A program made the translations under genes and the position numbers. The notes below the pieces were generated by a model. The model worked only from the letters and a program-made list of their open reading frames with translations. It did no database searches and was not told the origin of the DNA. Shown here piece by piece: positions 18,840-63,736 of a stretch of DNA of 64,000 nt (positions are counted from its first letter, which is position 1; the number at the start of each line of letters is the position of its first letter). The DNA is from Terriglobales bacterium (GTDB lineage Bacteria; Acidobacteriota; Terriglobia; Terriglobales; SCQP01): positions 2,017 to 66,016 of the forward strand of contig DATKSZ010000017.1 of assembly GCA_035531375.1 (NCBI GenBank), read 5' to 3'.

Positions 18840-19056
18840 CGCGGGGGTCGCGCCGCTTTGCCTGCCGGCAAAATCGGCGCGAAAGGCTGCGAAATTCCGC
18901 AGGGGCAGACGCGCCAGTGGCGCGTCTGCGCCCCCGGGAAACGAATTCGGCGCGGCCCCAGCGAAGCGCAGCGCCGGCTTGGGGCCGCGGGGCCCCAAGC
19001 CGGCGTGAGCACAAGCGGGACGCGCGGCGCAGCCGCGCTGGGGCCCGCGCCCACCA
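18840..19056 (+). repeat. R1 multi-hairpin intergenic element, copy A (long-hairpin variant)
   Basis: Starts CGCGGGGGTCGCGCCGCTTTGCCTGCCGGCAAAATCGGCGCGAAAGGCTGCGAAATTCCGCAGG and ends GCGCTGGGGCCCGCGCCCACCA. Lies between convergent genes. Confidence 0.9.
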
Positions 19057-19094
19057 AGGGGGCGCAGCCCCCAATCCAGGCAGGCGCAAGCCTC

Positions 19095-20420
19095 TCAATG
19101 CGGCCGGGTGGCCAAGACGTCCATGAACGAGCTGACGGAAAACACCGCCCGCCCCAGCCCGGGGTCGCCGTACCCGGGCGGCACCGGCAGCCGGTGCTTG
19201 GCGTGGGTGTCGCGCCAAGTCTCGAGCAGCCGCAGGTGGTACTCCAGCGGCGCGCCCCCGGGGTTGTCCTTGCCCAGCCGCGTCAGCGGCTCGGCGCACC
19301 AGGTGGTGAAGCGCGGGCACACGCCGTGCGACATGAAGAACTCCAGCCCCTCCCCGGTCGAGCGGATGGCGTCTTCCACCTCGGTGAAGCCGTGCGGCTT
19401 CGACATCTCGATCCCCGCCACAAAGTTGGGGATCACGTGCGAGGGACCGAAGATCTCGGCCGCGTCGAGAATGCGCCGGTGCCACTCCGCCCGCCCCACG
19501 TAGCGCTCCTTGCCGGGGCAAAGAATCGAGAACAGCCGCTCGTCCCAGATCTCGTAGTTGGGGTGGTAGATCTGGATGCCGGCGTCCTTGAAGCGTTGCG
19601 CCTCCGCCTTGGGCAGCGCCTGCGCCACCATCTTGCCGATCCAGCGCCCGCCGAAGCGGCTCTCAATGGCGGCGGCATATTGGGCGTAGAACTCGGCCTC
19701 GCCCTGGCCCTTGAGTTGGCTGGTGATGCTCCCGCCGGTGATGGTGTAGGCGCGGCTGGCCGAGTCGGTCGAGGCGATGATCTCCAGCGCCTCCAGGATC
19801 TCCTCCACTGCCTTGACCCCGGTGTAGGGCCGCCCCTCCTGGATCTGCTGCCGGTAGTTGTTGTTGATGTCGCAGAACTGGCACTCTTCCTGGTCGCCGA
19901 AGTACTGGCAGATGCGGAACACGGTCAAGTACACCAGGTAGCCCCACTCGATGGTGGGCGCGATCTCGATCACCCGCTTGCCGTTGGAGAGGGTGCGGGT
20001 GTAGTACTCCGGCACCGGGGGAAAGCGGATGTGGGTGAGCGGCTCGCCGTCCAGGTGCAGCACCGCCTGCGGCTCGCCCTCGGGGCCCTCGACCTCGATG
20101 CGGTAGGGGGAATTGGGGTTGAGCCGCACCGAGATGATGGTCGGCCGAAAGCCCCAGGCGCCGCCCTCCAGCCAAATCTCCTCCGGCGCGCTCCAGTGTT
20201 CCTGGTTTTCCATGTCCTTCAGCGGCACCAGATCGAAGGAAAAGATGAAGTACGCCTTGGCCTTGAATTGCGCCGCCAGGCGCAGCGCGGCGGGCGAGAA
20301 GGCGATGCCGGTGCGCAGCATGTCTTCCTTCACCACCGCCTCGCGCGGCAGCGTCGGGTGGGCGGCGGCGGCGGCCTCGACTTGGCGCAACCGCGTCGGG
20401 TTGGGATCCGGATGGGGCAC
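19095..20420 (-). CDS. Probable Fe-S / radical-SAM-like enzyme with atypical CX8CX2C motif, function unknown
   Basis: 441 aa. The only tight Cys cluster is RICQYFGDQEECQFCDINNNYR (C-x8-C-x2-C), followed by a TIM-barrel-like alternation (YTITGGS..., IQIYHPNYEIW, IPNFVAGIE). I cannot name the family from memory. Confidence 0.5.
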   Translation of the reverse strand: MPHPDPNPTRLRQVEAAAAAHPTLPREAVVKEDMLRTGIAFSPAALRLAAQFKAKAYFIFSFDLVPLKDMENQEHWSAPEEIWLEGGAWGFRPTIISVRLNPNSPYRIEVEGPEGEPQAVLHLDGEPLTHIRFPPVPEYYTRTLSNGKRVIEIAPTIEWGYLVYLTVFRICQYFGDQEECQFCDINNNYRQQIQEGRPYTGVKAVEEILEALEIIASTDSASRAYTITGGSITSQLKGQGEAEFYAQYAAAIESRFGGRWIGKMVAQALPKAEAQRFKDAGIQIYHPNYEIWDERLFSILCPGKERYVGRAEWHRRILDAAEIFGPSHVIPNFVAGIEMSKPHGFTEVEDAIRSTGEGLEFFMSHGVCPRFTTWCAEPLTRLGKDNPGGAPLEYHLRLLETWRDTHAKHRLPVPPGYGDPGLGRAVFSVSSFMDVLATRPH

Positions 20421-20481
20421 GCCCCAGTTTAGCTCACCCCCCGGTGGACCGATCGCCGGGGCGCGCTACAATCAACTCCGC

Positions 20482-23854: not shown

Positions 23855-25031
23855 GGCCCTGCCAGCGCAGAACTCTCCCCGCTCGCGGGGGTCGCGCCGC
23901 TTTGCCTGCCGGCAAAATCGGCGCGAAAGGCTGCAAAATTCCGCAGGGCGGCCCGCCCCCGGGAAGCGAATTCGGCGCGGCTCCAACCGGGCGCCGCGCG
24001 GATTTGGGGCCACCGGGCCCCCAAATCGGCGCGAGCACAAGCGGGACGCGCGCCGCAGGCGCGTTGGGGCCCGCGCCCACCATGGCTACCTGCTCATCGC
24101 CGCCGCCGCCTTCTGCTGGGGCTCGTCGGCGGTGCTGGCCCGCGCCGTCTTCACCGGCCACTGGTTCGCCGGCGCCCGCCTGGTGCCGGTGGGCCCGCTG
24201 GTGCTCACCCAGACCCGCATCGTGCTGGCGGCGCTGCTGCTGCTGCCGGTGCTGGCCGTCGTCCGCCGCGGCCGTTTGGCACTGCTCTCCGCCGACGCCC
24301 TGCGCGGCGCTGCCCTGGGCATCGCCGGCATGTCCGTCTCCAACTACTTTTACTACGTCGCCATTGCCCGCACCACCGTCGCCATCGCCATCATCCTGCA
24401 ATACACCACGCCCATCTGGGTCTTGCTCTATCTGGTGGCGCGCGGCCGCCAGCGCGCCACCCCGGCGCGCCTCGCCGCCGTGGGCTTGGCCCTGCTGGGC
24501 ATTGCCTTGGTCCTCGGCCTCGCCCACCCCGGCGCCGCCCTCCGCCTCGACCCGCTCGGCGTGGCCGCCGCCCTCGCCGCCGCGCTGGGCTTCACCTACT
24601 ACAACATCGCTGGCCAAACCCTGGCGACCCGCGTGGACCCGTTCCTCATCTCGCTCCACATGCTGCTCGGCGCCGCCCTGGTCTGGCTTTTCATCTCCCC
24701 GCCCTGGCGCCTCTGGACCGCCCATTACCCGTCCCGTGAATGGGGCTTCCTTCTGGGCTTCAGCCTGCTGGCCACGCTCCTGCCCACCCTGCTCTACATC
24801 TCCGGCCTCCGCCACCTCGATCCCACCCGCGCCGTGGTCACCAGTTGCCTGGAGCCGGTCACCGGCATTCTGCTGGCCGCGCTGTTCCTCGGCGAAGTCC
24901 TGGACTGGTCGCGTGCCTTGGGCGTGGCCTGCGTGCTCGGCGCCGTGGTGCTGGTGCAGCTCCGCCGCCGTGCGTCCCCGCCCGCAACGCCCCCGCTGAT
25001 GCTAGAAACCCTGCCGCCGCAGCTCCCCTAG
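23847..25031 (+). CDS. EamA/DMT-family transporter; 5' end uncertain (first ~79 codons of the ORF are read through R1 copy B)
   Basis: From GYLLIAAAAFCWGSSAVLARAV (about 24085) onward there are 10 TM helices in two EamA halves. There is no in-frame ATG/GTG/TTG between the repeat and codon ~145. The only upstream start is GTG 23847, which overlaps the stop of the preceding gene. Confidence 0.6.
   Translation: MPEALPAQNSPRSRGSRRFACRQNRRERLQNSAGRPAPGKRIRRGSNRAPRGFGATGPPNRREHKRDARRRRVGARAHHGYLLIAAAAFCWGSSAVLARAVFTGHWFAGARLVPVGPLVLTQTRIVLAALLLLPVLAVVRRGRLALLSADALRGAALGIAGMSVSNYFYYVAIARTTVAIAIILQYTTPIWVLLYLVARGRQRATPARLAAVGLALLGIALVLGLAHPGAALRLDPLGVAAALAAALGFTYYNIAGQTLATRVDPFLISLHMLLGAALVWLFISPPWRLWTAHYPSREWGFLLGFSLLATLLPTLLYISGLRHLDPTRAVVTSCLEPVTGILLAALFLGEVLDWSRALGVACVLGAVVLVQLRRRASPPATPPLMLETLPPQLP
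23884..24082 (+). repeat. R1 element, copy B (short variant)
   Basis: A 199-bp copy. Its 3' end ...GCGCCCACCA abuts the first conserved codons of the EamA gene. Confidence 0.9.
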
Positions 25032-25658
25032 CGTGACCCCGCGGGGGCGCTGCGCCTGCGCCCGCGCCGCCAGCAGCCGCTCCAGGTGCCGCGCCATCGG
25101 GTCGGTCTCCAGGTTGAGCGCCGCCCCGGGGCGCAGGAAGCGCAGGTGGGTGTGGCGATAGGTGTGGGGAATGATGGCGATCTCCACCCGCGCTCCCGCC
25201 AGCGCGGCAATGGTCAGGCTGATGCCGTCCACCGTCAGCGAGCCCTGGGGCACGAGATAGGCCTCCAGCGCCGCCGGTGCCTCCAGCCCCAGCCGCCAGC
25301 CGGCGTCCTTGCCCGCGGAGCGCAGCTCCAGCAGCCGCCCGGTGGCCTCCACATGGCCCTGCACCAAGTGGCCGCTGAGCGCATCCCCCACCCGCAGCGG
25401 GGGCTCGAGATTGACCCGGTCGCCGCGCCGCAGCCCGCCCAGGTTGGTCCGCGCCAGCGTCTCCGGGCTGAGGTCGGCGCTGAAGCTGCCCGCCCGCTGC
25501 TGCACCAGGGTCAGGCAGCAGCCATTGACGGCGATGCTCGCGCCCCGCTTCAGCCCGCGCAGCGCCCCCCCGGCGCCGCCGATCCGCAGCCGCGCCCCCT
25601 CCCCGCGCTGCCTCAGCTCCTCCACCTTGCCCACGGTCTGGATGATGCCGGTAAACAT
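25002..25658 (-). CDS. ribE: Riboflavin synthase (alpha chain)
   Basis: MFTGIIQTVGKV..., NGCCLTL and SLTVDGISLTI duplicated lumazine-binding repeats. 218 aa, directly downstream of ribD. Confidence 0.9.
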   Translation of the reverse strand: MFTGIIQTVGKVEELRQRGEGARLRIGGAGGALRGLKRGASIAVNGCCLTLVQQRAGSFSADLSPETLARTNLGGLRRGDRVNLEPPLRVGDALSGHLVQGHVEATGRLLELRSAGKDAGWRLGLEAPAALEAYLVPQGSLTVDGISLTIAALAGARVEIAIIPHTYRHTHLRFLRPGAALNLETDPMARHLERLLAARAQAQRPRGVTLGELRRQGF

Positions 25659-25661
25659 GGT

Positions 25662-26786: not shown

Positions 26787-26820
26787 GCTCTTGAAATTGT
26801 AATGCTATGATCGGTGCCGG

Positions 26821-27603: not shown

Positions 27604-27607
27604 CCGC

Positions 27608-28315: not shown

Positions 28316-28574
28316 GTTCTTCCACACCCTCCCGCTCCGCGCGCACCGGCGCGGGGCGCTAATAGCCAAATGGCACTGCGCGCCAATGGCGCTCGGCCCG
28401 GGCGGAAACGGGGAAGCGGAGGGGACCGCACCGAGGCGCGACTGGCAGATAGACTCCCGAAGCCAACGATGCAAGTGCAGGGCCATCCCGCGCCGCTGAT
28501 AATCCTCCACTTAGGCCGCGCCGCCGCCGCCGCGCAGGAGCCTGGCTTCCGCAAATGCGCAAACCGTTGCGCCC

Positions 28575-31313: not shown

Positions 31314-31388
31314 GCGGGAGTAGTTCAGTGGTAGAACGCCAGCTTCCCAAGCTGGATGTCGCCGGTTCGATCCCGGTCTCCCGCTCCA
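31314..31388 (+). tRNA. tRNA-Gly (anticodon CCC)
   Basis: Cloverleaf read by eye: GCGGGAG TA GTTC AGTGGTA GAAC G CCAGC TTCCCAA GCTGG ATGTC GCCGG TTCGATC CCGGT CTCCCGC T CCA. Confidence 0.9.
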
Positions 31389-31925: not shown

Positions 31926-32027
31926 GCATCTGCATTATAGATGCAGAGCAAGACGCGGCGACGACCGAGTGGTCTCGGGGCAGACCAGTTCGAGGTCGAG
32001 GAGCGGGGTTGCCTACCGGGTCCCGCT

Positions 32028-32226
32028 CGCGGGGGTCGCGCCGCTTTGCCTGCTGGCAAAACCGGCGCGAAAGGCTGCGAAATTCCGCAGGGCGGCCCGC
32101 CCCCGGGAAGCGAATTCGGCGCGGCCCCAGCGAGGCGCAGCGCCGACTCGGGGCCATGGGGCCCCCGAGTCGGCGCGAGCAAAAGCGGGACGCGCGCCGC
32201 AGGCGCGCTGGGGCCCGCGCCCACCA
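32028..32226 (+). repeat. R1 element, copy C (short variant)
   Basis: A 199-bp copy in the divergent region between vapB and an OMP gene. Confidence 0.9.
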
Positions 32227-32462
32227 ATTCGTCGCCGGCAAGCAACGCCTCGCCTGCCGAGCCGCCTCGACCGTCTCAGGGCGGCCGAGGGGGCCGCGGC
32301 CAACGGGAGCGGGCGGGGGCGCAGCCCCCGATCAAGGGAGGCGCAAGCCTCTCCCCGCCCCCCGCCCCCGTGCCAAACTAGGCAACTTCCCCACCCCCGG
32401 CTTCCCCCGGCCCCGGCGCTATAATCGAGGGAAGCAGTTCCACTCTGGCTGGAGGAGGCCGT

Positions 32463-40614: not shown

Positions 40615-40662
40615 AGAGAAAAATGGTAGCAGATGCCCGCTCGCGCCCCCAGAGGAGGCTGT

Positions 40663-40690
40663 GGCACAGCCCATCTTGGCTGTGCAAGCC
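40663..40690 (+). repeat. R2 REP-like palindromic unit (singleton)
   Basis: GGCACAGCCCATCTTGGCTGTGCAAGCC in the divergent proS / dehydrogenase intergenic region. Confidence 0.7.
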
Positions 40691-40762
40691 TCCCTGGGCG
40701 AAGGCCCATGCAACGCCCCCGCCCTCCCGCCCGCTCTAAGCCAACAACCGGAGGATCCAGCC

Positions 40763-45876: not shown

Positions 45877-45966
45877 GGGTTCGCTCCAGTGGCGAGTCTA
45901 GGGGGCGGCTCCGGGCTTGTCAACGCCCCCCTCCCGGCTGCCGAGCCCCCGCTGGCCGTTGCCTCC

Positions 45967-46433
45967 GCCACTTTCCGGCCACGGTGGCTCAGAACCCAGC
46001 CACGGTGGCACAGCCAGTCTTGGCAGTGCAAACCCAGCCCTACTGGCCACAGTGGCACAGCCAATCTTGGCTGTGCAAACCCAGCGCACAGCCAGTCTTG
46101 GCAGTGCGAGCCCAGCCCTACCGGCCACGGTGGCACAGCCAATCTTGGCTGTGCAAACCCAGCGCACAGCCAGGCTTGGCAGTGCGAGCCCAGCCCTACC
46201 GGCCACGGTGGCACAGCCAATCTTGGCAGTGCAAACCCAGCGCACAGCCAGGCTTGGCAGTGCAAACCCAGCCCTACTGGCCACAGTGGCACAGCCAATC
46301 TTGGCAGTGCAAACCCAGCGCACAGCCAGTCTTGGCAGTGCGAGCCCAGCCCTACTGGCCACGGTGGCACAGCCAATCTTGGCTGTGCAAACCCAGCGCA
46401 CAGCCAGGCTTGGCAGTGCAAGCTCAGCCCTAC
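45967..46433 (+). repeat. Tandem array of R2 REP-like palindromic units, 78-bp period, about 6 periods
   Basis: GGCACAGCCAATCTTGG starts at 46054, 46132, 46210, 46288 and 46366 (exactly 78 bp apart). Each period is an A half (GGCACAGCCAATCTTGGCTGTGCAAACCCAGC) plus a B half (GCACAGCCAGTCTTGGCAGTGCGAGCCCAGCCCTACCGGCCACGGT). Confidence 0.9.
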
Positions 46434-46676
46434 CCCCCCCCCACCACGACGCCCCACCCTCTCGCGGCGACCTCCGAGTCGCCTCGGGCGAGGCGAGATC
46501 GAGACTCCCAGAAGCCAGGGTCCGGGGTGCCTACCCCCTCCCGCCTCCCGGGCCACCTCGACCCCCGGGCCCCCCGAGGAGGGGCGGCGCAATCCTCCAC
46601 TGGGCACTTTTTCCTAGGGATTGCGCTTGCGGAGGCGTAGTATCGCCAAAGCGTCCGGTCACGTTGGGGCGAAGCC

Positions 46677-51300: not shown

Positions 51301-51774
51301 ACTCTGCGCCAATCCACCGCCACCCAGGTGCACATCCGCGGCGATATCACCGAAACCTCCGAGATGGTCAACCAAATGGAGATCTGGCGCAAGCAGATCC
51401 AGGACCAGCTTCAGGGCGACAGCCCCGCCGACGCGCCCGCGCTGACGCGGCTCAACACCCGCATCCTCGCGGTCGAGCACCAACTGGTCAGCGAGGCCGA
51501 GATGCTCAGCGACGACAAATACTTCCCCGAGGCCTACAAGGTCTACATGAACCTGATCTGGCTCAGCGGCGGCGTTGGCCAAGGCGCCAGCGACGAGGCC
51601 GGCGGCGTGGACTATGCCCCCACCGCCACCCAGGTGCGGGTGCTGGCCAGCATTGACCGCGAGCTGGCCACGGCGCGCACCGACTTCAACCAGTTGAAGT
51701 CCACCGTCCTGCCCGCCTTCAACAAATCCATGGCCGGCAAGGCCGCCGCCATCTCCAACACCCTGGGCAACTAA
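48349..51774 (+). CDS. Sortilin/VPS10-like BNR (Asp-box) repeat protein, paralog 3
   Basis: The ATG follows AGGAGGG. Signal peptide MKRLSFAAMLAIAVSLCLPLAAQ. Asp-boxes STDGGHSF, STDAGATW, TTDGGATW, SHDNGQTW, SDDGGAQW, STDGGRHF. Same helical C-terminal extension as paralogs 1 and 2. Confidence 0.8.
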   Translation: MKRLSFAAMLAIAVSLCLPLAAQYGRGPAGPQHTTTVPPLQFHYMGPAAAGRIASAAGVPGQPNVYYLGAASGGLWKSTDGGHSFRPIFDQQDAMAIGSIAVAPSDPSTVWVGTGEPWVIRPADIIGDGVYKSTDAGATWQHMGLVRTGRIARILVNPKDVNNVFVCAEGRVSAPQQSRGVFRTTDGGATWKRTLFVNPNTGCSGLSMDPADPNTLIAGAWQVTQRTWQEASGGPGSGVFISHDNGQTWTRLAAGLPHSPLGKIDVAIAPSNPQRMYALIQTYDQGSLWRSDDGGAQWQVVSWDRSLIGRAGYYIRLGVNPKNDNDVLITSSSPHYSTDGGRHFSGDGGTLKPIGPASCGDCHDIWIDPNNPARYVLTDDGGASIATGAGTALHVSLPNGQTYHVFSDNRVPYWIYSNRQDDGTMRIISTVSQPSGNGLLPANEFMPEGRGGRGGFFFGRGGRFPVNQQLVAQLPKPAPAPAGLAFGPNHLRTAPAGRGNGFGAPPMPTATYQANIGGCESGFTVPDPTDANVVWATCYGGKLTRYDAIEGEAHSVEPERITLDSPPNQVKYRCHWTSPLAIDPFDHNNVYYGCQMILKTDNKGFSWSEFSPDLSTKDPARVVPNGGIEGDNLAQYDGEVVWSIAPSPIQRGLIWAGTNDGKVWYTKDGESKTQPHWVDVTANLHLPPWGEVNQISPSNFDPGTAYIAVDFRMAGHEDLKPYLLETTDFGATWKSVNGDIPSSNPLDYTLSIAENPNRKGMLFAGSAHAFYYSMDNGGHWVHFNQGLPPAPVSWINVEKRFHDVDVSTYGRGLYILPDITSLEQTGSTAAPAATQLFKPADVFRQARGVFPTAAQPARPQFLFHLAAAPTGPVQMEILDAQGNEIRKQELDAHAGLNGAYWDLLYDAPTLVQLRTTPPENPHIWEEPRFQGKSIRTITHWGITPTTGIPLAAPGSYQVRLTIDGKSYTQPFQVLKDPAVLASSATLRQSTATQVHIRGDITETSEMVNQMEIWRKQIQDQLQGDSPADAPALTRLNTRILAVEHQLVSEAEMLSDDKYFPEAYKVYMNLIWLSGGVGQGASDEAGGVDYAPTATQVRVLASIDRELATARTDFNQLKSTVLPAFNKSMAGKAAAISNTLGN

Positions 51775-53864: not shown

Positions 53865-53900
53865 GTCTTAGCATGATAAACGACCCCGGGCCTGCGCGAA

Positions 53901-53942
53901 GGCCACAGTGGCACAGCCACTCTTGGCTGTGCAAACCCAGCC
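53901..53942 (+). repeat. R2 REP-like palindromic unit (singleton)
   Basis: GGCCACAGTGGCACAGCCACTCTTGGCTGTGCAAACCCAGCC, between the dehydrogenase stop and the peptidase start. Confidence 0.75.
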
Positions 53943-54983: not shown

Positions 54984-55016
54984 CCTCCCATGGTAGCCCG
55001 CCGCCGCTCCACCGGC

Positions 55017-55093
55017 GGTCCCCTGTCCCCTGTAGCCTATTCCCTGTCCACTGTCCACCGTCCACCGTCCACTGTCCACCGTCCACTGTCCAC
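55017..55093. repeat. Heptanucleotide microsatellite (YGTCCAC)x7 at 55045..55093, preceded by 4 degenerate units
   Basis: Read directly: TGTCCAC TGTCCAC CGTCCAC CGTCCAC TGTCCAC CGTCCAC TGTCCAC, preceded by GGTCCCC TGTCCCC TGTAGCC TATTCCC. Confidence 0.9.
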
Positions 55094-55103
55094 TAGCCCG
55101 CTT

Positions 55104-57314
55104 TCACTTCCCCGGGTGGTACACCCGCTCGGTGTGCCCCCGCAGTTGCGCCGGGTAGAAGTAGACGGTGCGCAGGTTGCCGCTGGCGTAGCGCTCGGCC
55201 TGGTCGCGGAAGTGGGGCGAGTGCGGGTCCCCGCTCTCCCCTCCGGCCGTCACCGCGCGGGCCACGATGGTGGGGCCAAAATCAATCGCCGCCACAAAGC
55301 TGTTGCCGCTGCTGCCGTAGATCGCCTTGGTGCCCGGATATTGCCGCGCGGCGAAGGAGGCGAGCGAGCCCCACACCGCCGTGGTGAAGGGCACCGGAAC
55401 ATAGGGCAGATGGTCGTCGAAGTGGGGATGGCGGATCGAGTCGTCCAGCCGCTGGAAGCGGTTGATCTTGCCCCACGGCGTCCTCCAGGTGCCAAAGTCG
55501 GCGGTCAGCTTGTCCACCGCCGCCGCCAGCGCCTGCAGCAACTGTTCCGGCGCGGGGATGGTGGCCACGTAGGTGCTCTCGTCCTCCTCCGCCTGCCGCC
55601 CCGCCCGCCCGGCGCTGCGCATGATCTGGCTGCCCCAATACACCGCCAGCGAAGTCGGCACCGAGTCCGCGCCCCAGCGCAGGTTCCAGTGCCGCAGCAG
55701 CGCGATCGGCTCCGCCAGCTTGGCCTTCAGCGGGTCGGAGGCCGGCGCCTGGTCCCAGGCCTTCACCAGCGCCGGGATGGTGTGGGTGAACCACGGCTGG
55801 TAGCTGTCGAACGCCACCTGGTGGATCAGCCCGTCCAGCGTGAGGTCCTGCACCTGGGAGAGCACCCGGACCGCGTGCACGCCCCGCATGGACTCGAACC
55901 GCCCCCGGTCCACGTATACCGGAAAGTCGCTGCGCTTGGGGCTGTCCGGCCCCGCCGCCGACCACGGCCAGTTGTTGGAGTTGTACAGCCAGCCGTTGGC
56001 CGGATCCAGCAAGTGCGGCGTCTGCTCGAGCGTCAGCAGGCCGTGCCAGGCGGTAGCGGGGTTGCTGCCGTCCACCGGCTTGGTGAAGTCGAACCGGGTC
56101 GAGCGCCGCGGGATGAAGTCGGAGTGGAAGTAGGCGATGTGGCCGTCGGCGTCGGCGTAGATGGTGTTGTTGCTGGAGTTGGTGTGCAGCCGCATGATCT
56201 GCCGGAACTGCTGGTAATTCAGCGCCTTGGTCCGCTCCCAGTCCTGCTCCAGCGCCCGCATCGGCCGCTCCATCAGGCTGACCGTCTCCCACCGCCCCTG
56301 CGCCTCCCCGACCACCGGCCCGTGCTGGGTGAAGTAGGCGGTGAACCGGCGCTGCGCCATGCCGGTCGCCGTCTTGTAGGCAATGGTGATCACCCTTTGC
56401 CGCACCGGCAGCTCTTGCGCGCCGTACTGGTACACGTAGTGGCCGCCCTGCCGGCTCACCTTCTCCAGGTAGAAGTCAATGTTGTCCGCCCCGCTGGAGG
56501 TGTGCATCCAGCCGATGCGGGTGTTGAAGCCCTGGTAGATGAAAAAATTCCCCCAGGTGACCGCGCCATAGGCGTCCAGCCCCTGGTCGCTCGTCATCTG
56601 CAGCTCGCTGCGGAAGTAGAACGAGGTGTGGGGGTTGATCATCAGGAAGGCGTGGTGGTCGGCGGTGAGCCGGGGCGCGACCGCGAAGCCGTTGGACCCG
56701 CCCGGCTCCGGCGGCAGGTAGCGGGGCGCGGCCGGCGGCGGCGGCGGCGGATCAATGCCCCCCGGCTGCTTCCCGTAGAACGCCCGGATCTCCCCCAGGT
56801 TCGCCCGCTCCAGGTCCCAGCCGATGCTGCCCTCGCTGAAGGCCAGCGCCATCCATGGCTCGAAGTGATGGATCACCTCCGGGTGCACCTGCGGATGGGT
56901 GTAGAGGTAGTAGTTCAGCCCGTCGGCGAAGCCCACCAGCAACCGCCGCAGCCACGCCGGGCTGGCCTGGTACTTGGCCCGCTCCACCGCCGGATCCTGG
57001 AACAGCTTCATGCGCAGGTCGCGCCAAATCTGCGCCGGCCCTTCCGCCTCCGACAGCCGCCCCAGCCCGCTCAGATAGTTGGTCTCCACCCGGTGGAAGT
57101 CGTCCTCCGCCTGGGCGTACTCCATGCCAAACACCGCCTCCGCGTCGGTGGCGCCGTGCACGTGGGCGATGCCCCAGTCGTCGCGGGTGATGGTCACCGC
57201 CGCCGCTTCCCGCTTCCACCGCGCCAGCTCGGCGGCGGAGGGGGCTTGGGCAGGCAATGCCAGCGGCAGCAGCGCGGCGCACGCCGCCGCCAGCACTAGG
57301 GCAAGGTTCTTCAT
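55104..57314 (-). CDS. Penicillin acylase family protein (Ntn hydrolase, peptidase S45)
   Basis: ATG 57314: MKNLALVLAAACAALLPLALPAQA. Motifs ITRDDWGIAHVHG and YAQAEDDFHRVE, with the autoprocessing site PEPGGSNGFAVAP (Ser nucleophile). The ORF track N-extension to 57974 reads through R1 copy D. Confidence 0.85.
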   Translation of the reverse strand: MKNLALVLAAACAALLPLALPAQAPSAAELARWKREAAAVTITRDDWGIAHVHGATDAEAVFGMEYAQAEDDFHRVETNYLSGLGRLSEAEGPAQIWRDLRMKLFQDPAVERAKYQASPAWLRRLLVGFADGLNYYLYTHPQVHPEVIHHFEPWMALAFSEGSIGWDLERANLGEIRAFYGKQPGGIDPPPPPPAAPRYLPPEPGGSNGFAVAPRLTADHHAFLMINPHTSFYFRSELQMTSDQGLDAYGAVTWGNFFIYQGFNTRIGWMHTSSGADNIDFYLEKVSRQGGHYVYQYGAQELPVRQRVITIAYKTATGMAQRRFTAYFTQHGPVVGEAQGRWETVSLMERPMRALEQDWERTKALNYQQFRQIMRLHTNSSNNTIYADADGHIAYFHSDFIPRRSTRFDFTKPVDGSNPATAWHGLLTLEQTPHLLDPANGWLYNSNNWPWSAAGPDSPKRSDFPVYVDRGRFESMRGVHAVRVLSQVQDLTLDGLIHQVAFDSYQPWFTHTIPALVKAWDQAPASDPLKAKLAEPIALLRHWNLRWGADSVPTSLAVYWGSQIMRSAGRAGRQAEEDESTYVATIPAPEQLLQALAAAVDKLTADFGTWRTPWGKINRFQRLDDSIRHPHFDDHLPYVPVPFTTAVWGSLASFAARQYPGTKAIYGSSGNSFVAAIDFGPTIVARAVTAGGESGDPHSPHFRDQAERYASGNLRTVYFYPAQLRGHTERVYHPGK

Positions 57315-57387
57315 GTCAAGGGCCTCAGGTGCCGCGCCCGCGGCGCGGCACTCCGAATTTAGCCCTTCCCCCGCCGAGAATGCAAGT

Positions 57388-57647
57388 CGCGGGGGTCGCG
57401 CCGCTTTGCCTGCTGGCAAAATCGGCGCGAAAGGCTGCGAACCGGGGTCCCCAGAGCCCGCCTCGGGCTCTGGGGTGGTCGTAATTCCGCAGGGGCAGAC
57501 GCGCCAGTGACGCGTCTGCGCCCCCGGGAAGCGAATTCGGCGCGGCCCCAGCGAAGCGCAGCGCCGACTTGGGGCCCTGGGGCCCCCAAGCCGGCGCGAG
57601 CACAAGCGGGACGCGCGCCGCAGGCGCGCTGGGGCCCGCGCCCACCA
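57388..57647 (+). repeat. R1 element, copy D (long-hairpin variant with an extra 43-bp hairpin module)
   Basis: The extra module ACCGGGGTCCCCAGAGCCCGCCTCGGGCTCTGGGGTGGTCGT is inserted between GGCTGCGA and AATTCCGCAG. Confidence 0.9.
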
Positions 57648-57664
57648 TCGGCGCAAGCCTCCGC

Positions 57665-58717
57665 CTACGGCACCACGATCACCTCGCCCTTCATCCCCAG
57701 CGTGTCGTGCAGCGCGCAGATGTAGGGATAGACGCCGGTGTGGGTAAAGGTCACCTCGAAGCGCGTCACCCCCGGCGGCGCCTGCGCCAGCCCGATCCGC
57801 TCCTGCGGCGCGGCCATCAGGAATCCCGAACTGACGTTGTCGCTGGGCGAGTGGATGGTGGCGTGCAGCGCCCCGTCCGCCCCGGTCGTCACGTTGGCGC
57901 TGGGCGCCAGCAGGTTCGTCGGTTCGGTCCCGAAGGTGATGGTGTGGGGCGTGATCGGATCCGAGTTGCTCCACGCCACCGTATCGCCCACATGCACGGT
58001 GATGGTTCCCCGCGAAAAGCGCATCACCGACAGCGTCTGCGCGCCGCCGGGGGTGGCGTTGATCTCGCCGATCCCGGCGGTCACCTGCGGCCCTCCCGGG
58101 CTCTCGGCCTTGTAGCCGCGGTAGCCGTCGCGGTCGCCGTCGTGGTCGCCGTCATGGTCGCCGTAGCTCTGCCACTCGTCCATGCCCGGCATCGCCAGGT
58201 CGTCGGTCAACAGCGCCTGCTGGTGGCGCGCGGCTTCGCGATCATAAAAGGCCTGATCGTAGGGCAGGGTTGCCGACGCGTCCAACACGTGGACCACGCC
58301 CGTCATCGTCTCGTGCACCAGGCACACCAGCTTGAAATTGCCGGGGTTGGGAAACGTGACCGTGAAGCTGGCGCCTTTCACCTGCGCCGCCGTGGTCACG
58401 CACGTGGTGCCGTCGAAAGTCGCCGGGCTCGTGGCAAATCCCGGGCAACCCACCGCAAACGGCGGCCTCACCTGCCCCGCCGTCAAAAAGGTCACCGTGT
58501 GGATCTCGTCGGTCTGAAAGCTCCAGGTGACGCTGTCGCCGGCGTGGATCCAGATCTCGTTGGGCAAAAAGGCCAGGGCCTGTTTGGCCAGGTCTTTGCT
58601 CTGCGCCCCCACCGTGGCGTGCCACTGCGCCTGGGCGGCGCGCGGCAGCGAGACCGCCGCCAGCAAAACCAGACCCGGGCCAAAAGTCCCCCATCCCAAC
58701 GCTCCCCATGTCCTCAT
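57665..58717 (-). CDS. Secreted two-domain cupredoxin (plastocyanin/azurin-like blue copper protein)
   Basis: Signal peptide, then two type-1 Cu ligand sets: ...HTVTF...KLVCLVHETMTG and ...HTITF...YICALHDTLGMKG. His/Asp-rich linker YGDHDGDHDGDRDGYRGY. Confidence 0.8.
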   Translation of the reverse strand: MRTWGALGWGTFGPGLVLLAAVSLPRAAQAQWHATVGAQSKDLAKQALAFLPNEIWIHAGDSVTWSFQTDEIHTVTFLTAGQVRPPFAVGCPGFATSPATFDGTTCVTTAAQVKGASFTVTFPNPGNFKLVCLVHETMTGVVHVLDASATLPYDQAFYDREAARHQQALLTDDLAMPGMDEWQSYGDHDGDHDGDRDGYRGYKAESPGGPQVTAGIGEINATPGGAQTLSVMRFSRGTITVHVGDTVAWSNSDPITPHTITFGTEPTNLLAPSANVTTGADGALHATIHSPSDNVSSGFLMAAPQERIGLAQAPPGVTRFEVTFTHTGVYPYICALHDTLGMKGEVIVVP

Positions 58718-58812
58718 GTTTCGACCTCCGCCTCGAGCATGCCCGACTCCCCCGGGCCCAAGTCCATGGCAGGCAACTGGAATCCCGGTGAAATGAATCT
58801 GTCAGCTCATCT

Positions 58813-59108
58813 CGCGGGGGTCGCGCCGCTTTGCCTGCTGGCAAAACCGGCGCGAAAGGCTGCGAGATTCCGCAGGGGCAGACGCGCCAGTGGCGCGTCT
58901 GCGCCCCCGGAAACGAATCCGGCGCGGCCCCAGCAGCCCAGCAAGGATGCCGCGCAGCGCCGACTTGGGGCCTTGGGGCCCCCGAGTCGGCGCGAGCATG
59001 CCGCCCCGCGCATCTACAGCGGGGCGGCTCGCAAGCGGGACGCGCGCCGCACCGGCCTGGCGCTGCTCCAGCCGGGCCGGGCAGGCGCGCTGGGGCCCGC
59101 GCCCACCA
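58813..59108 (+). repeat. R1 element, copy E (longest copy, with three extra modules)
   Basis: Contains the extra hairpin GCATGCCGCCCCGCGCATCTACAGCGGGGCGGCTC and an insertion ACCGGCCTGGCGCTGCTCCAGCCGGGCCGGGC in the 3' stem. Confidence 0.9.
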
Positions 59109-59172
59109 TGGCCGGACAGACAAGGACTTAGGCGTTGTTTCCAGGGGCGGAGCGGCGCCGCGTGTGCAGAAC

Positions 59173-59949
59173 ATGCCGGATCTCGCTGCCACCTATCGCT
59201 TTGGCGCCTTCGAGATGGACACCCGGGCGCGCCAACTGAAGAAGCACAACGCCCGCCTCAAGCTCCACGGTCAGCCGCTGGAACTCTTGCTGCTGCTGGT
59301 CGAGCGGGCGGGCGAGGTGGTGACCCGCGACGAGATGCGCCAGCGCTTGTGGCCCCGCGATACCTTTGTGGACTTCGACAACGGCGTCAACGCCGCGGTG
59401 CGGCGCTTGCGCTGCGCCCTGGCCGACCCGGCCGCCCGGCCGCACTTTATCGAGACCCTGGCGCGCGTCGGCTACCGCTTCTTGGCGCCGGTCGAGCGCG
59501 TTGCGGTCCCCGCCCAGGGCCGCTTCGTGCTGGTGGTGCTCCCGTTTGAGAACCTCAGCGGCGATCCCTCCCAACCCTACTGGGGCGACGGCCTGACCGA
59601 CGAGATCATGACCTGCCTGGGCGCGCTGGCCTCCCCCCACTTGGCCGTGATTGCGCGCTCCTCGGCCCTGGCCTTTCGGCGCGCCGCCAAGCCCGTCAGC
59701 GAAATCGGCCGCGAGTTGGGTGCCGACTTCGCCGTCGAGGGCACCTGTCGCCGCCAAGGCCAGCGGCTGCGGATCACCGCCCAGCTCGTCCGCGCCCGCG
59801 ACCAGATCCACCTCTGGGCGCAGCATTACGACCGCGAGGCGGGCGACCTCTTGGCGGTGCAAGCCGAGCTCGGCCGCGCCATCGCCGACCAGATCCAAGC
59901 CCAATTGGGCGGGCCGCCGATCGCGGCCCCGCCCCCGCCGGCGGGCTAG
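59173..59949 (+). CDS. Winged-helix (OmpR/CadC-type) DNA-binding protein with a C-terminal TolB-N-like domain
   Basis: YRFGAFEMDTRARQLKKHNARLKLHGQPLELLLLLVERAGEVVTRDEMRQRLWP...VNAAVRRLRCAL...IETLARVGYRF, then VLPFENLSGDPSQPYWGDGLTDEI. Confidence 0.8.
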   Translation: MPDLAATYRFGAFEMDTRARQLKKHNARLKLHGQPLELLLLLVERAGEVVTRDEMRQRLWPRDTFVDFDNGVNAAVRRLRCALADPAARPHFIETLARVGYRFLAPVERVAVPAQGRFVLVVLPFENLSGDPSQPYWGDGLTDEIMTCLGALASPHLAVIARSSALAFRRAAKPVSEIGRELGADFAVEGTCRRQGQRLRITAQLVRARDQIHLWAQHYDREAGDLLAVQAELGRAIADQIQAQLGGPPIAAPPPPAG

Positions 59950-60146
59950 CGGGGGTCGCGCCGCTTTGCCTGCCGGCAAAATCGGCGCGAAAGGCTGCGA
60001 AATTCCGCAGGGCGGCCCGCCCACGGGAAGCGAATTCGGCGCGGCCCCAGGGAAGCGCAGCGCCGACTTGGGGCCACGGGGCCCCCAAGTCGGCGCGAGC
60101 ACAAGCGGGACGCGCGCCGCAGGCGCGCTGGGGCCCGCGCCCACCA
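59949..60146 (+). repeat. R1 element, copy F (short variant)
   Basis: Fills the gap between the stop TAG 59947..59949 (+ gene) and the stop 60150..60152 (- gene). Confidence 0.9.
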
Positions 60147-60149
60147 TGC

Positions 60150-61001
60150 CTAGGCCAGCGCGGCGCGGCTGAGTTGCCGCGGCAACACTCCCAGCGCGCG
60201 GCGCATGTGCCGCGCCAAATGGCTCTGGTGGGCGAAGCCCGCCGCCCGCGCCACCTGGCTCGGCGGCACCTCGCCTTGCAGCAGCAGCAGCGCCGCCCAC
60301 TCCACCCTCCGCCGAATCACAAATTGATGCACCGGCACCCCGGCCGCGTGGCGAAACTGGCACTTCAGGTGGGAAACGCTCACCCCCGCCACCCCCGCGA
60401 TCGCCGTCAGCGGCAGGTCCTCGCCCAGATGGTCCTCGATATAGGTGGTCACTTGGCGCAGCTTGAGCGGCGGAAAGCCGCGCGGCCCGGTCGCCGCCGG
60501 CCGGCTGGCGTTGCTATAGCCCTGCAGCAGCCGCTCGCCCAACGCTTGCGCCGCGCTCTCCCAAAACAGCGTCCCCCGGGGATAGCCCTGGCTCACCTCC
60601 GCCAGCAGCGACCAGCCGATCTGCTCGATGCGCGGATCGCGCCTCTGGAAGCGGCTGCGCAGCACCACCCGGTCCGGATCCAGCTCCGCCTCTTCGCAAA
60701 TCCGGCGCAGCCGGTTGGGACACAAGCTGAGCACCAGCGCCGTGTCCTGCTCCTTCATCTCCCAGCGCGCCGGCAGCCCGTTGGGAATGACATCCACGTC
60801 CCCGTGGAGGGCCACCCCGGAAAAGCGCTCGTCGCCGTGCCGGCATTCCATCCGCACCGGGCGGCCGACATGGATCGCCACCCGGGGCCAGGATCGCGCC
60901 TCCGTCTCGCATATGCCCGGAGCATCCGAGAGAAGCACCACACGTAAGGAATCAGATACAGTACGAGAATCCAAGTAGCGAATCTGCTCTGGAGTCGCCA
61001 T
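60150..61001 (-). CDS. AraC family transcriptional regulator
   Basis: C-terminal double HTH: LTAIAGVAGVSVSHLKCQFRHAAGVPVHQFVIRRRVEWAALLL...VARAAGFAHQSHLARHMRRALGVLPRQL. Confidence 0.85.
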   Translation of the reverse strand: MATPEQIRYLDSRTVSDSLRVVLLSDAPGICETEARSWPRVAIHVGRPVRMECRHGDERFSGVALHGDVDVIPNGLPARWEMKEQDTALVLSLCPNRLRRICEEAELDPDRVVLRSRFQRRDPRIEQIGWSLLAEVSQGYPRGTLFWESAAQALGERLLQGYSNASRPAATGPRGFPPLKLRQVTTYIEDHLGEDLPLTAIAGVAGVSVSHLKCQFRHAAGVPVHQFVIRRRVEWAALLLLQGEVPPSQVARAAGFAHQSHLARHMRRALGVLPRQLSRAALA

Positions 61002-61364
61002 GCCTCATGATAGCCCGGTCACGACCAAGTGGCGCTCCCGGCACTGCTCGCCGTGATAGTTTGGTGGCCGATTGTGCTGGTGCGGCTGAGCGAAAATACG
61101 ACCCCCTACAAGACGCGGCCGCGGCCGTCCCGGTTTCGACTCCGTGCGGCCCAGCCCGCGCCCGTCGCCTCGTCTGCGCCGCCCGCCCAAAACCGTCGGG
61201 AGAGGCTCTCCGCGCTCCGCCTCGGCACTGCTAGTGCCGCCGGTGGAAAACGCCCAGCCGGCGCCTTCGCGCCCTGCCTCGGTCGGGGCTGCGGTTGCAA
61301 GAGGTCGGCCCGGAAGGATAGCATGGCAGTGCACGGTTTGCATGGATGTTTGCCTGGATGAACG

Positions 61365-62387
61365 ATGATTTCCCTCAAGAGCCACATGGATGAATGGGAT
61401 GGGCTGCGCTCCCGCGGCAAGGTGTCGCTGGGGGCCTACATCCGCGTGCTGCGCGCCCTCGAGGCCAGCGCCGCCGAGATGGTGGGCGGCGAGGGGGTGC
61501 AGTTCCGCGAGGATTTGCGCGCCATTCTGCAGTACCTGGACGAGCAGGCCGAGCCGCCGGTGATTGAAAAAAGCCGGCTGGAGGTGGAAAAGGCCATCCA
61601 GGCCCTGGTCGAGGTCATCAACCGGCGCGAGTTCGAGTACAAGGAGATCATCCGCATCATCGCCGAGGCCGGCGCCACCATGGCCCAGACCGGCAGCGCC
61701 CACAGCGAGGACCTGCGCCGGGCGGCCGCCAAGGTGGAGTCCATCGCCCGCCTCGACTCGCTGCCGGAGGCGCGCCGCCAGTTGAGCGCCCACGTCGAGG
61801 ATCTGCGCGGCATCGCCGCCCGGGTGCAGGCCGAGGGCCTCGCCCAGGCGCAGCGCCTGAAGCAGGAGCTGGAGCTGGCCCGCGAGCACCTGCGCTTCGC
61901 CGCCGCCCTGGCCGAGACCGACCCCCTCACCGGCCTCGGCAACCGCCGCCGCGCCGAGGCCGCGGTGCAGCGCGCCATCGCCGAGCAGGCCCGCGTCAGC
62001 GTGCTGCTGCTCGACCTCGACGGCTTCAAGGCCGTCAACGACGGCTACGGCCACGCCCAGGGCGACAAGCTGCTCAAGTCCGTCGCCCAGCACGTCCGCC
62101 GCTGCCTGCGCGAGACCGACCTGGTCTGCCGCTGGGGCGGCGACGAGTTTGTGGTGGTCATGCGCGACGCCCCCCTGGAGGCCGCCGAGGCCACCGCCGA
62201 CCGCATCCGCACCCAAGCCTTCGGCGAGTTCGTCCTCGGCCGCGCCGGCGAAAATATCCAGGTCGAGATCAGCGCCAGCATCGGCGCCGCCGAGTTCCAG
62301 CCCGGCGAGGCCGCCTCCGACCTGCTCGAGCGCGCCGACCGCGCCATGTACGCCTTCAAGAACCGCGCCAAGGGCGCCGCCGGATAG
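61365..62387 (+). CDS. Diguanylate cyclase (GGDEF domain) with a coiled-coil N-terminal region
   Basis: DPLTGLGNRRRAE, LLLDLDGFKAVNDGYGHAQGDKLL, RWGGDEFVVVM (GGDEF), RADRAMYAFK. Confidence 0.85.
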   Translation: MISLKSHMDEWDGLRSRGKVSLGAYIRVLRALEASAAEMVGGEGVQFREDLRAILQYLDEQAEPPVIEKSRLEVEKAIQALVEVINRREFEYKEIIRIIAEAGATMAQTGSAHSEDLRRAAAKVESIARLDSLPEARRQLSAHVEDLRGIAARVQAEGLAQAQRLKQELELAREHLRFAAALAETDPLTGLGNRRRAEAAVQRAIAEQARVSVLLLDLDGFKAVNDGYGHAQGDKLLKSVAQHVRRCLRETDLVCRWGGDEFVVVMRDAPLEAAEATADRIRTQAFGEFVLGRAGENIQVEISASIGAAEFQPGEAASDLLERADRAMYAFKNRAKGAAG

Positions 62388-62426
62388 CCCCCGCCCCCGC
62401 GCCGCGCGCGCCTGCCCCTCCCCGCT

Positions 62427-62699
62427 CGCGGGGGTCGCGCCGCTTTGCCTGCCGGCAAAATCGGCGCGAAAGGCTGCGAAATTCCGCAGGGGCAGACGCG
62501 CCAGTGGCGCGTCTGCGCCCCCGGGAAACGAATTCGGCGCGGCCCCAGCGAGGCGCAGCGCCGACTTGGGGCCAGGGGGCCCCCAAGTCGGCGCGAGCAC
62601 AAGCGGGACGCGCGCCGCAGGCGCGCTGGGGCCCGCGCCAACCACTGTTTCACCGGGCCGGCGCGCTAGCGGCACGCGCGCGGGAGCCCGCGCCCACCA
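62427..62699 (+). repeat. R1 element, copy G (long-hairpin variant with a duplicated 3' terminus)
   Basis: A first terminus-like GGGGCCCGCGCCAACCA lies at about 62629..62645. A 54-bp insert follows, then the second terminus GGGAGCCCGCGCCCACCA ending at 62699. Confidence 0.85.
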
Positions 62700-62705
62700 T
62701 TCCGT

Positions 62706-63080
62706 CTAGTCAAAGAGTACGCCGCCACACACCAACAGCAGAGCGGCAGTGCCAATCATTTCGTTGCCGATAAACAAACCCATCATGCTCGCGCCGACCA
62801 CAGCCTCAAGCAACACAGCCAGGCCGCAGAGCAATACATAGACCTTGCGCAGCTTGGTTTCGGCAAAGCCCGCCAACAGCGCAACCATCGCTACCACAAT
62901 CCAGTGCCACCCCAGCGAGAGAAAAACGACGCGAAAGGCCGCCTTGAGCGCTGCGTCCAGGGTCGACGCGTTCAACGCTGGAAATCCCACGGTGACGCCG
63001 CCAATCCAGTGGAGCACGGCGCTGGCAATGAGTACTACGCTCCCCGCTACGACAAAAGCACGTGCGACTCTGTTACGCAT
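62706..63080 (-). CDS. Small 4-TM membrane protein, unknown function; visibly lower GC
   Basis: From ATG 63080: MRNRVARAFVVAGSVVLIASAVLHWIGG...; four hydrophobic segments. The longest ORF extends to 63185. Confidence 0.5.
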   Translation of the reverse strand: MRNRVARAFVVAGSVVLIASAVLHWIGGVTVGFPALNASTLDAALKAAFRVVFLSLGWHWIVVAMVALLAGFAETKLRKVYVLLCGLAVLLEAVVGASMMGLFIGNEMIGTAALLLVCGGVLFD

Positions 63081-63208
63081 GCGAACTTGCCTCCGATAAC
63101 GTTCGGTAAATTTCGCACATTTGAAAAGGCCTGGGCTGGTCTGGTACAAAAAGCGCTGGCGCCCCTGGCAGGGGGCGCCAGCCAAACCGACCAGAACAGG
63201 AGACCAGC

Positions 63209-63736
63209 ATGGCGCAAGATCAAGAGCCGGTCAAGGCCGGGGGTGTGATTCAGATTGACGAGCGGCCAATCCGGGGCCACGTGGACCAAGTGGTGCGGGC
63301 GACGGTGGAGGAGACGTTGAACCAGCTTTTCGCGGGGGCCGCGCCGCTTTGCCTGCTGGCAAAATCGGCGTGAAAGGCTGCGAAATTCCGCAGGGGCAGG
63401 CGCGCCAGTGACGCGTCTGCGCCCCCGGGAAGCGAATTCGGCGCAGCCCCAGCGAGGCGCGAGCATGCCGCCCCGCGCTGTTACAGCGGGGCGGCTCACA
63501 AGCGGGACGCACGCCGCAGGCGCGCTGGTGCCCGCGCCCACCAAAAGATCGAGGCCTGGCGCAACCGGCCGATCGAGAACGAGCACCCCTACGTGTACCT
63601 GGACGGGATCTGGCTGAAGCGGAGCTGGGGCGGCGAGGTCAAGAACGTCGCCGTACTGGTGGCGATCGGGGTGAACCAGGAGCGCGGCCTGCGCGGCGTG
63701 AAGCTGTTCGTCTCCGATCGGTGTTTAGGCCTGGTC
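63209..63736 (+). pseudogene. IS256-family transposase remnant (N-terminal ~40 codons plus a central fragment), split by R1 copy H and truncated at the 3' side
   Basis: MAQDQEPVKAGGVIQIDERPIRGHVDQVVRATVEETLNQL (63209..63328) and KIEAWRNRPIENEHPYVYLDGIWLKRSWGGEVKNVAVLVAIGVNQE/RGLRGVKLFVSDRCLGLV (63545..63736) match the conserved IS256 transposase layout. Large internal parts are missing. Confidence 0.65.
63331..63543 (+). repeat. R1 element, copy H (inside the IS256-like remnant)
   Basis: Begins CGCGGGGGCCGCGCCGCTTTGCCTGCTGGCAAAATCGGCG and ends GCGCTGGTGCCCGCGCCCACCA. It carries the same GCATGCCGCCCCGCG...ACAGCGGGGCGGCTC module as copy E. Confidence 0.9.

Follow-up and report, generated by a model that had tools for sequence, protein, structure and literature searches.

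What is the element that recurs eight times between the genes of a single 64-kb stretch of bacterial DNA, always on the same strand, and what set it in that orientation? The stretch, hereafter the window, comprises 64,000 nucleotides (nt) of a Terriglobales bacterium (assembly GCA_035531375.1, contig DATKSZ010000017.1, positions 2,017 to 66,016) and has a G+C content of ~70%. Its prolyl-tRNA synthetase (ProS) shares 100% identity with the enzyme of a Terriglobales metagenome-assembled genome (Acidobacteriota). The element is a ~200-bp multi-hairpin repeat that we named R1; related contigs and loci are designated by L numbers (L001, etc.). Repetitive extragenic palindromic (REP) elements and domesticated REP-associated tyrosine transposases (RAYTs) are among the commonest bacterial repeats, and their movement in vivo is largely inferred. 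We consider it probable that R1 is non-coding, non-autonomous mobile DNA of the class formed by REPs and bacterial interspersed mosaic elements (BIMEs), built from hairpin modules. The class is known; the R1 family departs from REPs and from REP doublets forming hairpins (REPINs) in its size, its modularity, its lack of inverted pairing and its polarity relative to replication.

Eight copies of R1 share one strand

A preliminary description of the window had listed eight co-oriented copies of R1. Repeat finding, MAFFT alignment and an nhmmer profile each returned exactly eight full copies, all on the plus strand (nhmmer E-values of 5e-59 to 6e-42; Table 1). A pattern search of the window, allowing up to 3 mismatches, gave seven matches to the conserved 5' part of R1 and seven to the conserved 3' part, again all on the plus strand, and none of 100 shuffled controls yielded any match. 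The only minus-strand matches were weak palindromic self-matches within the same eight copies. We thus retained the coordinates proposed earlier, with two corrections. First, the end points had been set one base short on each side, as a T belongs to the 5' end and an A or a T to the 3' end. Second, the interval 62427-62699 assigned to copy 7 contains a full copy that stops at 62644, the rest being a separate duplicate of the 3' end. All eight copies are intergenic and they occupy convergent, divergent and tandem settings, in line with the earlier observation that the flanking genes take every orientation.

R1 is a chain of hairpins with compensatory changes

In 117 complete copies (110 distinct sequences), R1 lengths lie between 139 and 423 nt and have their modes at 199 and 218 nt. 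The 5' domain consists of four hairpins. Its conserved 5' part contains hairpin A (TCGCGCCG-C-TTTGCC / GGCAAA-AT-CGGCGCGA) and hairpin B (CTGCG / CGCAG), which are followed by hairpin C, existing in short and long versions, and by a hairpin centered on GAATTC. Then come a 16-bp hairpin (GCGCCGACTTGGGGCC...), the last hairpin GCGCGCC-GCA-GGCGCGC and the tail TGGGGCCCGCGCC(C/A)ACCA. The 3' domain is a branched palindrome of ~110 nt closed by the helix GGCGCGGCCCCAG / CTGGGGCC(C)GCGCC. Modules are inserted into loops, swapped, lost or tandemly amplified, and the 5' and 3' modules show high sequence conservation. In L048 (3946-4671), two 3' hairpin modules are repeated in tandem with an 89-nt period (~8 units, 97-98% identical). 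This array was considered as CRISPR-like and rejected, since the period reflects a tandem duplication of two hairpin modules without variable spacers.

The preliminary description had proposed these hairpins, together with a test for covariation. We scored an explicit structure on 50 distinct copies and found that 97% of the cells pair, whereas only 36-49% do so when the partners are slid by 1 to 3 columns. Two-sided changes were present in 8 pairs (45 cells), a level reached by none of 500 shuffles. The hairpins listed earlier exist, and compensatory changes support them. The most informative covariation came from a long-range helix that had escaped the earlier analysis, GGCCCCA (columns 158-164) / TGGGGCC (columns 319-325), in which pair 164-319 is AU in 31 copies, UA in 11, GC in 1 and GU in 2. 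Elsewhere, pair 191-215 is AU in 29 copies and GC in 13, and pair 275-313 is CG in 36 and GC in 13. In the minimum-energy fold, the long-range helix extends to GGCGCGGCCCCAG / CTGGGGCC(C)GCGCC, so that the 3' half of R1 forms a closed, branched domain, and the 5' CGCGGGGG is left unpaired. Closure of the entire unit by pairing of the 5' CGCGGG with the 3' CCCGCG, as suggested previously, is possible but receives no covariation support, and the minimum-energy fold pairs the 3' CGCGCC with GGCGCGGCCCCAG instead. Because the closing bases are invariant, covariation neither supports nor excludes this closure. When copy 6 was folded as single-stranded DNA, the z scores of its two strands were -3.6 and -4.5 relative to 200 shuffles.

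Such conserved helices raise the question of whether R1 acts as RNA, either as structured small RNA genes or as regulatory or stabilizing elements at the transcript level. The compensatory changes in several helices, the very stable folds and the consensus G-U pairs in one predicted top-strand helix would fit this explanation, but both strands fold equally well, and the counts of G-T and A-C mismatches favor neither. Furthermore, the 5' flanks of R1 are unrelated beyond five bases, which leaves no shared promoter, and no T-run follows the hairpins. The copies stand in every orientation relative to neighboring genes, they lose or exchange modules or amplify them in tandem, and one of them forms a translated, in-frame part of uvrC (see below); Rfam gave no match even at E<=1 over the five copies searched at that level. 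We regard a function at the RNA level as very unlikely. As to coding, the statement that no reading frame is conserved was right, though the top strand is open in frame 1 and the uvrC copy is read through. R1 gives rise to spurious open reading frames (ORFs), and the translation of one copy had nine matches among 1.84 billion representative proteins. The CCA at the 3' end was also examined as a tRNA-like feature and rejected: ARAGORN and Rfam detect only two true tRNAs, and the terminal A is not universal, as ends in ...CCAACC and ...CCCACC exist.

R1 inserts precisely and without target duplication

Two comparisons of filled and empty sites delimit the mobile unit. In L052, an R1 copy disrupts a gene that is kept uninterrupted in three homologs (L071, L033 and L008), and GTCCTC^CTCGTCC in the empty sites becomes GTCCTC-T[198 nt]A-CTCGTCC in the filled one, with no target duplication. 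In L041, a 199-nt R1 core lies in frame within uvrC (3722-3920) and adds exactly 67 residues relative to five orthologs, between RRLA(D/E) and AAALPSLVLIDGG (between the RRRY motif and LIDGG). We made this second comparison at the protein level, because the closest orthologs are only 62-72% identical. Cutting T + 199 + A (201 nt) from uvrC restores a conserved Glu codon (GA^G) and the length of the orthologs; removal of 204 nt was rejected, as the protein is then one residue short. Additional fragments of R1 3' modules are found at 4423-4550 of L041, where they are read through upstream in the same uvrC ORF. In-frame copies within genes are rare (1-2 of 109), and REPs inside UvrABCD genes have been described (PMC3733652).

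The base preceding the R1 core is T in 103 of 110 copies and the base following it is A or T in 102 of 110, against a background of 29% A+T. Head-to-tail copies meet as ...CCAA followed directly by TCGCGG. Five positions upstream of the core, i.e., four before the insertion point, 105 of 110 copies have a C, and the base next to the T (position -2) is C in 57 of 110. The three bases between the conserved C and the T are variable, CGC being the commonest (22/109); we found nothing convincing that would link them to internal R1 positions or reveal a hidden target duplication. Together, the flank counts and the empty sites establish that the unit is T...(A/T), that it inserts without duplication and prefers a target with a C four bases 5' of the insertion point, and that the left junction is often C^T. 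Cleavage by E. coli TnpA-REP requires C^T (PMC3333891). For the window's own copies, the ProS and penicillin-amidase neighborhoods yielded no empty site: the relatives lack R1 but show broken synteny across the spacers concerned, with an inversion of the tRNA-Gly.

These junctions bear on whether R1 is a classical miniature inverted-repeat transposable element (MITE), moved by a DDE transposase that recognizes terminal inverted repeats. The size of R1 (200-340 nt), its lack of coding and its many copies would fit a MITE, and genes for IS21 and IS256 transposases do occur near some R1 loci. However, R1 has no terminal inverted repeats, its ends being TCGCGGGGG... and ...CGCCCACCA(A/T), both empty-site comparisons contradict a MITE by the absence of target duplication, and strict polarity is not expected of DDE elements. 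We therefore give this origin hardly any credence.

R1 orientation follows GC skew

The shared strand of the eight copies called for a comparison with GC skew, as the preliminary description had pointed out. Redundant loci were removed before adjacent copies were compared, and R1 elements were masked when GC skew was calculated. Co-orientation proved to be general across related contigs, since adjacent R1 copies within contigs lay on the same strand in 60 cases and on opposite strands in 4 (60/64, ~94%). It also tracked skew. At loci with positive skew, 11 copies lay on the plus strand and 56 on the minus strand; at loci with negative skew, the numbers were 65 and 31, respectively (Fisher p = 6e-11). 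At loci where the absolute skew exceeded 0.1, R1 orientation agreed with GC skew in 21 of 24. In the window, GC skew is negative in nearly every 2-kb bin.

We then considered 92 loci oriented by R1. The R1 top strand had a skew of -0.106 in genes co-oriented with R1 and of -0.042 in those anti-oriented to it, and coding capacity was split 49:51 between the two strands relative to R1. Because the top strand is C-rich in both gene orientations and the coding split is even, the bias is strand-wide, as expected from replication, and does not follow from the direction of transcription. In conventional terms, the top strand of R1 would be the lagging-strand sequence and its complement the lagging-strand template. 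The motif GGGNAGGG, which resembles FtsK orienting polar sequences (KOPS), is commoner on the bottom strand of the DNA so oriented (151) than on the top strand (81), a difference that gives weak support since the bottom strand is G-rich anyway. A skewed octamer, TCAATGAG, was rejected as a polar motif, as it corresponds to the repeat of a CRISPR array in L073 (~7300-13300, ~85 repeats, GCTTCAATGAGGCCGCCGCCGATCGGCGGCGGAAAC). Replication-linked orientation bias is known for IS200-type elements (PMC3971601). For REPs, no report of an orientation bias was found in the literature searched, which was a partial library.

A RAYT gene and the D7 hairpin lie beside R1 copies

A search for a RAYT or an IS200-type transposase had also been suggested. 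We translated in six frames ~950 kb of DNA fetched around R1 copies and queried the ORFs with E. coli RayT and the L001 protein. A single RAYT protein was found, encoded in the related contig L001 (2191-2658) next to R1 copies and identical in L028 (176-643). It scores 89.8 bits against the NCBIfam equivalog model REP_Tyr_transpos (cut-off, 80) and matches Pfam Y1_Tnp (E 5e-10), E. coli RayT (E 1e-7) and TnpA-REP of PDB 4ER8, its best solved relative (E 2e-6). Its motifs NHVH, WQ and YLAFNP are like those of class 2 of Quentin et al. On the 3' side of the gene, on the same strand and within 2.3 kb, lie a hairpin of a second repeat, D7 (2659-2690), an R1 copy (2720-2917), another D7 and two more R1 copies. 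The RAYT reading frame runs on through the D7 hairpin and the R1 copy, with the first stop at 3204. On the 5' side, an IS21 insertion sequence (IS) (IstA/IstB, L001 28-2117) ends ~70 nt upstream of the RAYT start, and the upstream flank is replaced. Multi-copy protein families at R1 loci, considered as candidate transposases, were rejected because they are translations of R1 itself.

D7 is a short REP-type hairpin, (G)GTGG-CACAGCC-AATCTT-GGCTGTG; with ~25 nt, a GT[AG]G tag and a short stem, it has the canonical REP form. In all 14 loci that contain D7, it lies on the strand of R1. On the bottom strand of R1, TGGT(G/T/A)G stands before the foot of the helix that closes the 3' domain, comparable to the GGTGG found 5' of D7 and to the GT[AG]G tag by which RAYTs recognize REP hairpins. 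The bottom-strand sequence TGGT(G/T/A)G-GCGCGGGCCCCAG presents GTGG in 68, GTTG in 33 and GTAG in 3 of 109 copies, its register relative to the stem foot being ambiguous. D7 and R1 are mutually inverted in their tags only, and by analogy D7 might stand to the 3' domain of R1 as REP stands to inverted REP in E. coli.

Several of these properties are also those of a miniature derivative of IS200/IS605, similar to the palindrome-associated transposable elements (PATEs), which would be moved by a TnpA encoded elsewhere and of which a part may be a TnpB guide-RNA scaffold. Like IS200/IS605 and PATEs, R1 carries subterminal hairpins on either side, lacks inverted termini and leaves its target unduplicated. 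Like IS200/IS605, it inserts 3' of a preferred flank, has a conserved base 5' of its left end and shows an orientation bias related to replication, a bias that is documented for IS200 and IS200/IS605 and tied there to single-stranded DNA. Yet no autonomous parent was found: the ~950 kb around the copies contained neither a long R1 with an internal tnpA or tnpB nor any Y1 transposase other than the RAYT. The seemingly orphan 5' ends of R1, examined as termini of a long autonomous element, were rejected as diverged or truncated short copies. In addition, only one of four target positions is conserved in R1 (C at -4), in contrast to the fixed 4-5-nt target of these IS, and no guide-like feature of conserved length follows the 3' end. 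We judge this derivation improbable. At L081 (~9533-9961, minus strand) and L050, R1 5' fragments abut an IS21-type transposase or end sequences, which suggests insertion of IS21 into R1 or assembly joins at repeats.

R1 is confined to a narrow clade

The distribution of R1 was scanned with an exact 28-nt pattern. Among 185,579 species-representative genomes, the pattern occurred in one contig, L001, which belongs to a metagenome-assembled genome labeled Streptosporangiaceae. This label is probably a binning error, because every other R1 locus appears to come from relatives of the Terriglobales-like genome of the window. Metagenomes contributed more than 108 further loci among the matches listed, nearly all from three related samples. 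The pattern was not found in plasmids, phages or viral contigs, and relatives at 77-83% protein identity had no R1 copy within the 12-22 kb examined. Rfam produced no match at the gathering score over the whole window and none at E<=1 over 57300-63650, which includes five copies, so the earlier remark that R1 matches no named family is borne out for this database. Given the outcomes of the genome, metagenome, plasmid, phage, viral, protein and Rfam searches, the R1 family is confined to a narrow clade and is nameless in the resources searched.

Within this clade, R1 content varies among close relatives, and R1 and D7 replace each other at an orthologous spacer: the intergenic spot of L063 that corresponds to the site of the D7 array in the window carries an R1 copy. 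In L113 (900-2515), from a relative with 94% identity, a phage-integrase island is inserted near ADH/ProS genes and has a fragment of R1 next to it.

This variability weighs on the idea that R1 serves the host as a strand-specific chromosome signal or structure, once spread by a transposase and now kept in orientation by selection rather than by insertion chemistry. R1 could then offer a polar site to a protein that binds DNA or is associated with the fork, or could act as a supercoiling sink. REP/BIME elements bind IHF and gyrase, the polarity of R1 is very strong and independent of gene direction, D7 shares this polarity although it looks unrelated, and the 5' and 3' modules are highly conserved, all of which would speak for such a signal. 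Against this, R1 comes and goes among close relatives and exchanges places with D7, as just described, and it is truncated, rearranged and inserted into genes as selfish DNA would be. No protein partner is known. Moreover, selection on structure alone would not produce polarity, because a plain hairpin forms on both strands. A host function as the origin of the R1 pattern thus seems unlikely to us.

R1 compared with known repeat systems

R1 shares with REPs, BIMEs and REPINs (E. coli REP y/z, Pseudomonas REPINs) a high copy number, with eight intergenic copies in 64 kb in addition to the metagenomic loci, as well as a mostly intergenic location and a palindromic, non-coding nature. It is likewise mosaic and modular, tandemly amplified and provided with a candidate GT[AG]G-like tag at a stem foot. 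At one locus, a RAYT gene has copies of the repeat on one side, which may correspond to a REPtron. C^T junctions are frequent, occasional copies sit in DNA-repair genes and the family is lineage specific. The reading of R1 as a long, modular element of the REP/BIME class accounts for the compensatory hairpins, the T or C^T junction and the uvrC insertion. In the mechanism that we propose, the folded single strand of R1 would be bound by a RAYT present in a single copy, an HUH enzyme that uses one catalytic tyrosine. The enzyme would cut on the 5' side of the terminal T (often at C^T) and on the 3' side of ...CCA(A/T), and would then join the unit to target DNA that the replication fork exposes as a single strand. 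Movement of this kind would leave no target duplication, would allow modules to be swapped and amplified, and would give one orientation relative to replication. A coupling of RAYT to single-stranded DNA at the fork has already been proposed (PMC3333891).

A number of points weigh against this interpretation. At 200-340 nt and with 6-8 hairpins, R1 is atypical, being five to ten times longer than canonical REPs; REPs have 20-40 nt and REPINs ~100 nt. Its copies lack the inverted pairing of REPINs and BIMEs and form no inverted doublets; instead, neighbors are co-oriented and polar relative to replication. It has no sequence similarity to any described REP family, and ~30% of the copies carry GTTG in place of GT[AG]G. 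The candidate tag lies on the bottom strand of R1, whereas the target C, the C^T junction and the D7 tag lie on the top strand, so these signals conflict as to which strand would be active. Mismatch counts (G-T 46, A-C 31) single out no strand as the functional one. The compensatory changes partly follow two subfamilies, and few independent events may lie behind them. The only RAYT locus found belongs to a related genome and not to that of the window, in a search that covered DNA around R1 copies, and its adjacency to R1 is weak evidence because R1 is so dense. D7, the hairpin nearest to the RAYT gene, may be the true cognate REP and R1 unrelated to the enzyme. Finally, as no origin or terminus was seen in the sequences, the direction of replication at R1 loci is inferred from GC skew and the KOPS-like count.

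Other repeats resemble R1 in part. Acidobacteria are known for atypical folded repeats that occur by the hundreds next to Y1 transposases (PMC6006769). The repeats associated with class 3/subclass 2.6 Y1 genes and the "TIRtron" repeats (Quentin et al. 2018; Di Nocera et al. 2013) are likewise folded repeats next to Y1 genes in the same phylum. However, class 3 proteins have the motif Y----Q, while the L001 protein has the class 2 motifs NHVH, WQ and YxxxNP, and the repeats themselves were compared by description only. Rickettsia palindromic elements (RPEs) are similar to R1 in being palindromic and able to sit in frame inside genes, which R1 does rarely. Pneumococcal BOX elements share its arrangement of a conserved 5' module, variable internal modules and a conserved 3' module. 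R1 has no sequence relationship to RPEs or to BOX, and we know of neither being recognized for polarity relative to replication.

Neighborhood of the R1 copies in the window

The R1 and D7 features of the window are collected in Table 1. Genes for a ferric reductase-like protein, an EamA transporter, a penicillin amidase, a cupredoxin, regulators and a GGDEF protein surround the R1 copies.

Table 1. R1 and D7 features of the window (positions count from the first nucleotide of the window; extents of R1 copies include the terminal bases)
Feature	Extent	Strand	Core	Remarks
D7 hairpin	18784..18826	+		upstream of R1 copy 1
R1 copy 1	18839..19057	+	18840-19056	long hairpin C variant; D7 REP hairpin 13 nt upstream
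R1 copy 2	23883..24083	+	23884-24082	basic form; core of 199 nt with a T at either terminus
R1 copy 3	32027..32227	+	32028-32226	basic form; tRNA-Gly 640 nt upstream of copy
D7 hairpin, single	40652..40694	+		
D7 tandem array	45930..46512	+		period 78; two alternating hairpin variants
D7 hairpin, single	53899..53941	+		
R1 copy 4	57387..57648	+	57388-57647	additional 42-nt hairpin within hairpin B loop
R1 copy 5	58812..59109	+	58813-59108	additional GCCGCCCCGCG hairpin module; insertion in loop of last hairpin
R1 copy 6	59947..60147	+	59949-60146	basic form; folds on both strands better than 200/200 shuffles
R1 copy 7	62426..62644	+	62427-62644	long hairpin C variant
Lone duplicate of R1 3' end (GAGCCCGCGCCCACCA)	62659..62699	+		15 nt past copy 7
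R1 copy 8	63330..63544	+	63331-63543	GCCGCCCCGCG hairpin in place of GCGCCGACTTGGGGCC hairpin

Directly after copy 8, at 63593-63913, a gene for an IS256-family transposase begins, with five R1 copies within the preceding 6 kb; the matching region of L110 is annotated as Transposase_mut. The tRNA-Gly(CCC) beside copy 3 (31314-31388) is inverted relative to its neighbors when compared with L114 (18389-18463), a relative with 83% ProS identity, and at this spot the window has ~3.7 kb of genes beyond those of L114. Other repeats of the window are located within genes. Three paralogous BNR/sortilin-like genes of ~1100 amino acids (aa) each occupy 11355-14702, 14510-17995 and 48349-51774; two of them adjoin and share 75-82% identity along repeated stretches. 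The gene of a 901-aa Ig-like/PKD/purple-acid-phosphatase-N protein contains, at 29712-30802, 234-bp tandem repeats with 85-97% identity.

Implications

R1 has a practical side. The ENA contigs covering this portion of the window measure only 5-7 kb, which we take to reflect putative breaks at R1 repeats, and metagenome assemblies of this soil lineage may thus be fragmented by R1.

As a more speculative proposal, which we advance tentatively, R1 and the co-oriented D7 may together constitute a REP-type system whose copies are almost all set in one orientation relative to the fork. If true, this would provide evidence from natural genomes for a replication-coupled, strand-specific spread of REP-like DNA driven by RAYT. 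Alternatively, these strongly folding units may have been recruited by the host as polar, strand-specific signals of chromosome architecture. With its exact junctions, its modular build and its near-complete polarity, R1 offers a natural test case for replication-coupled movement of single-stranded DNA.

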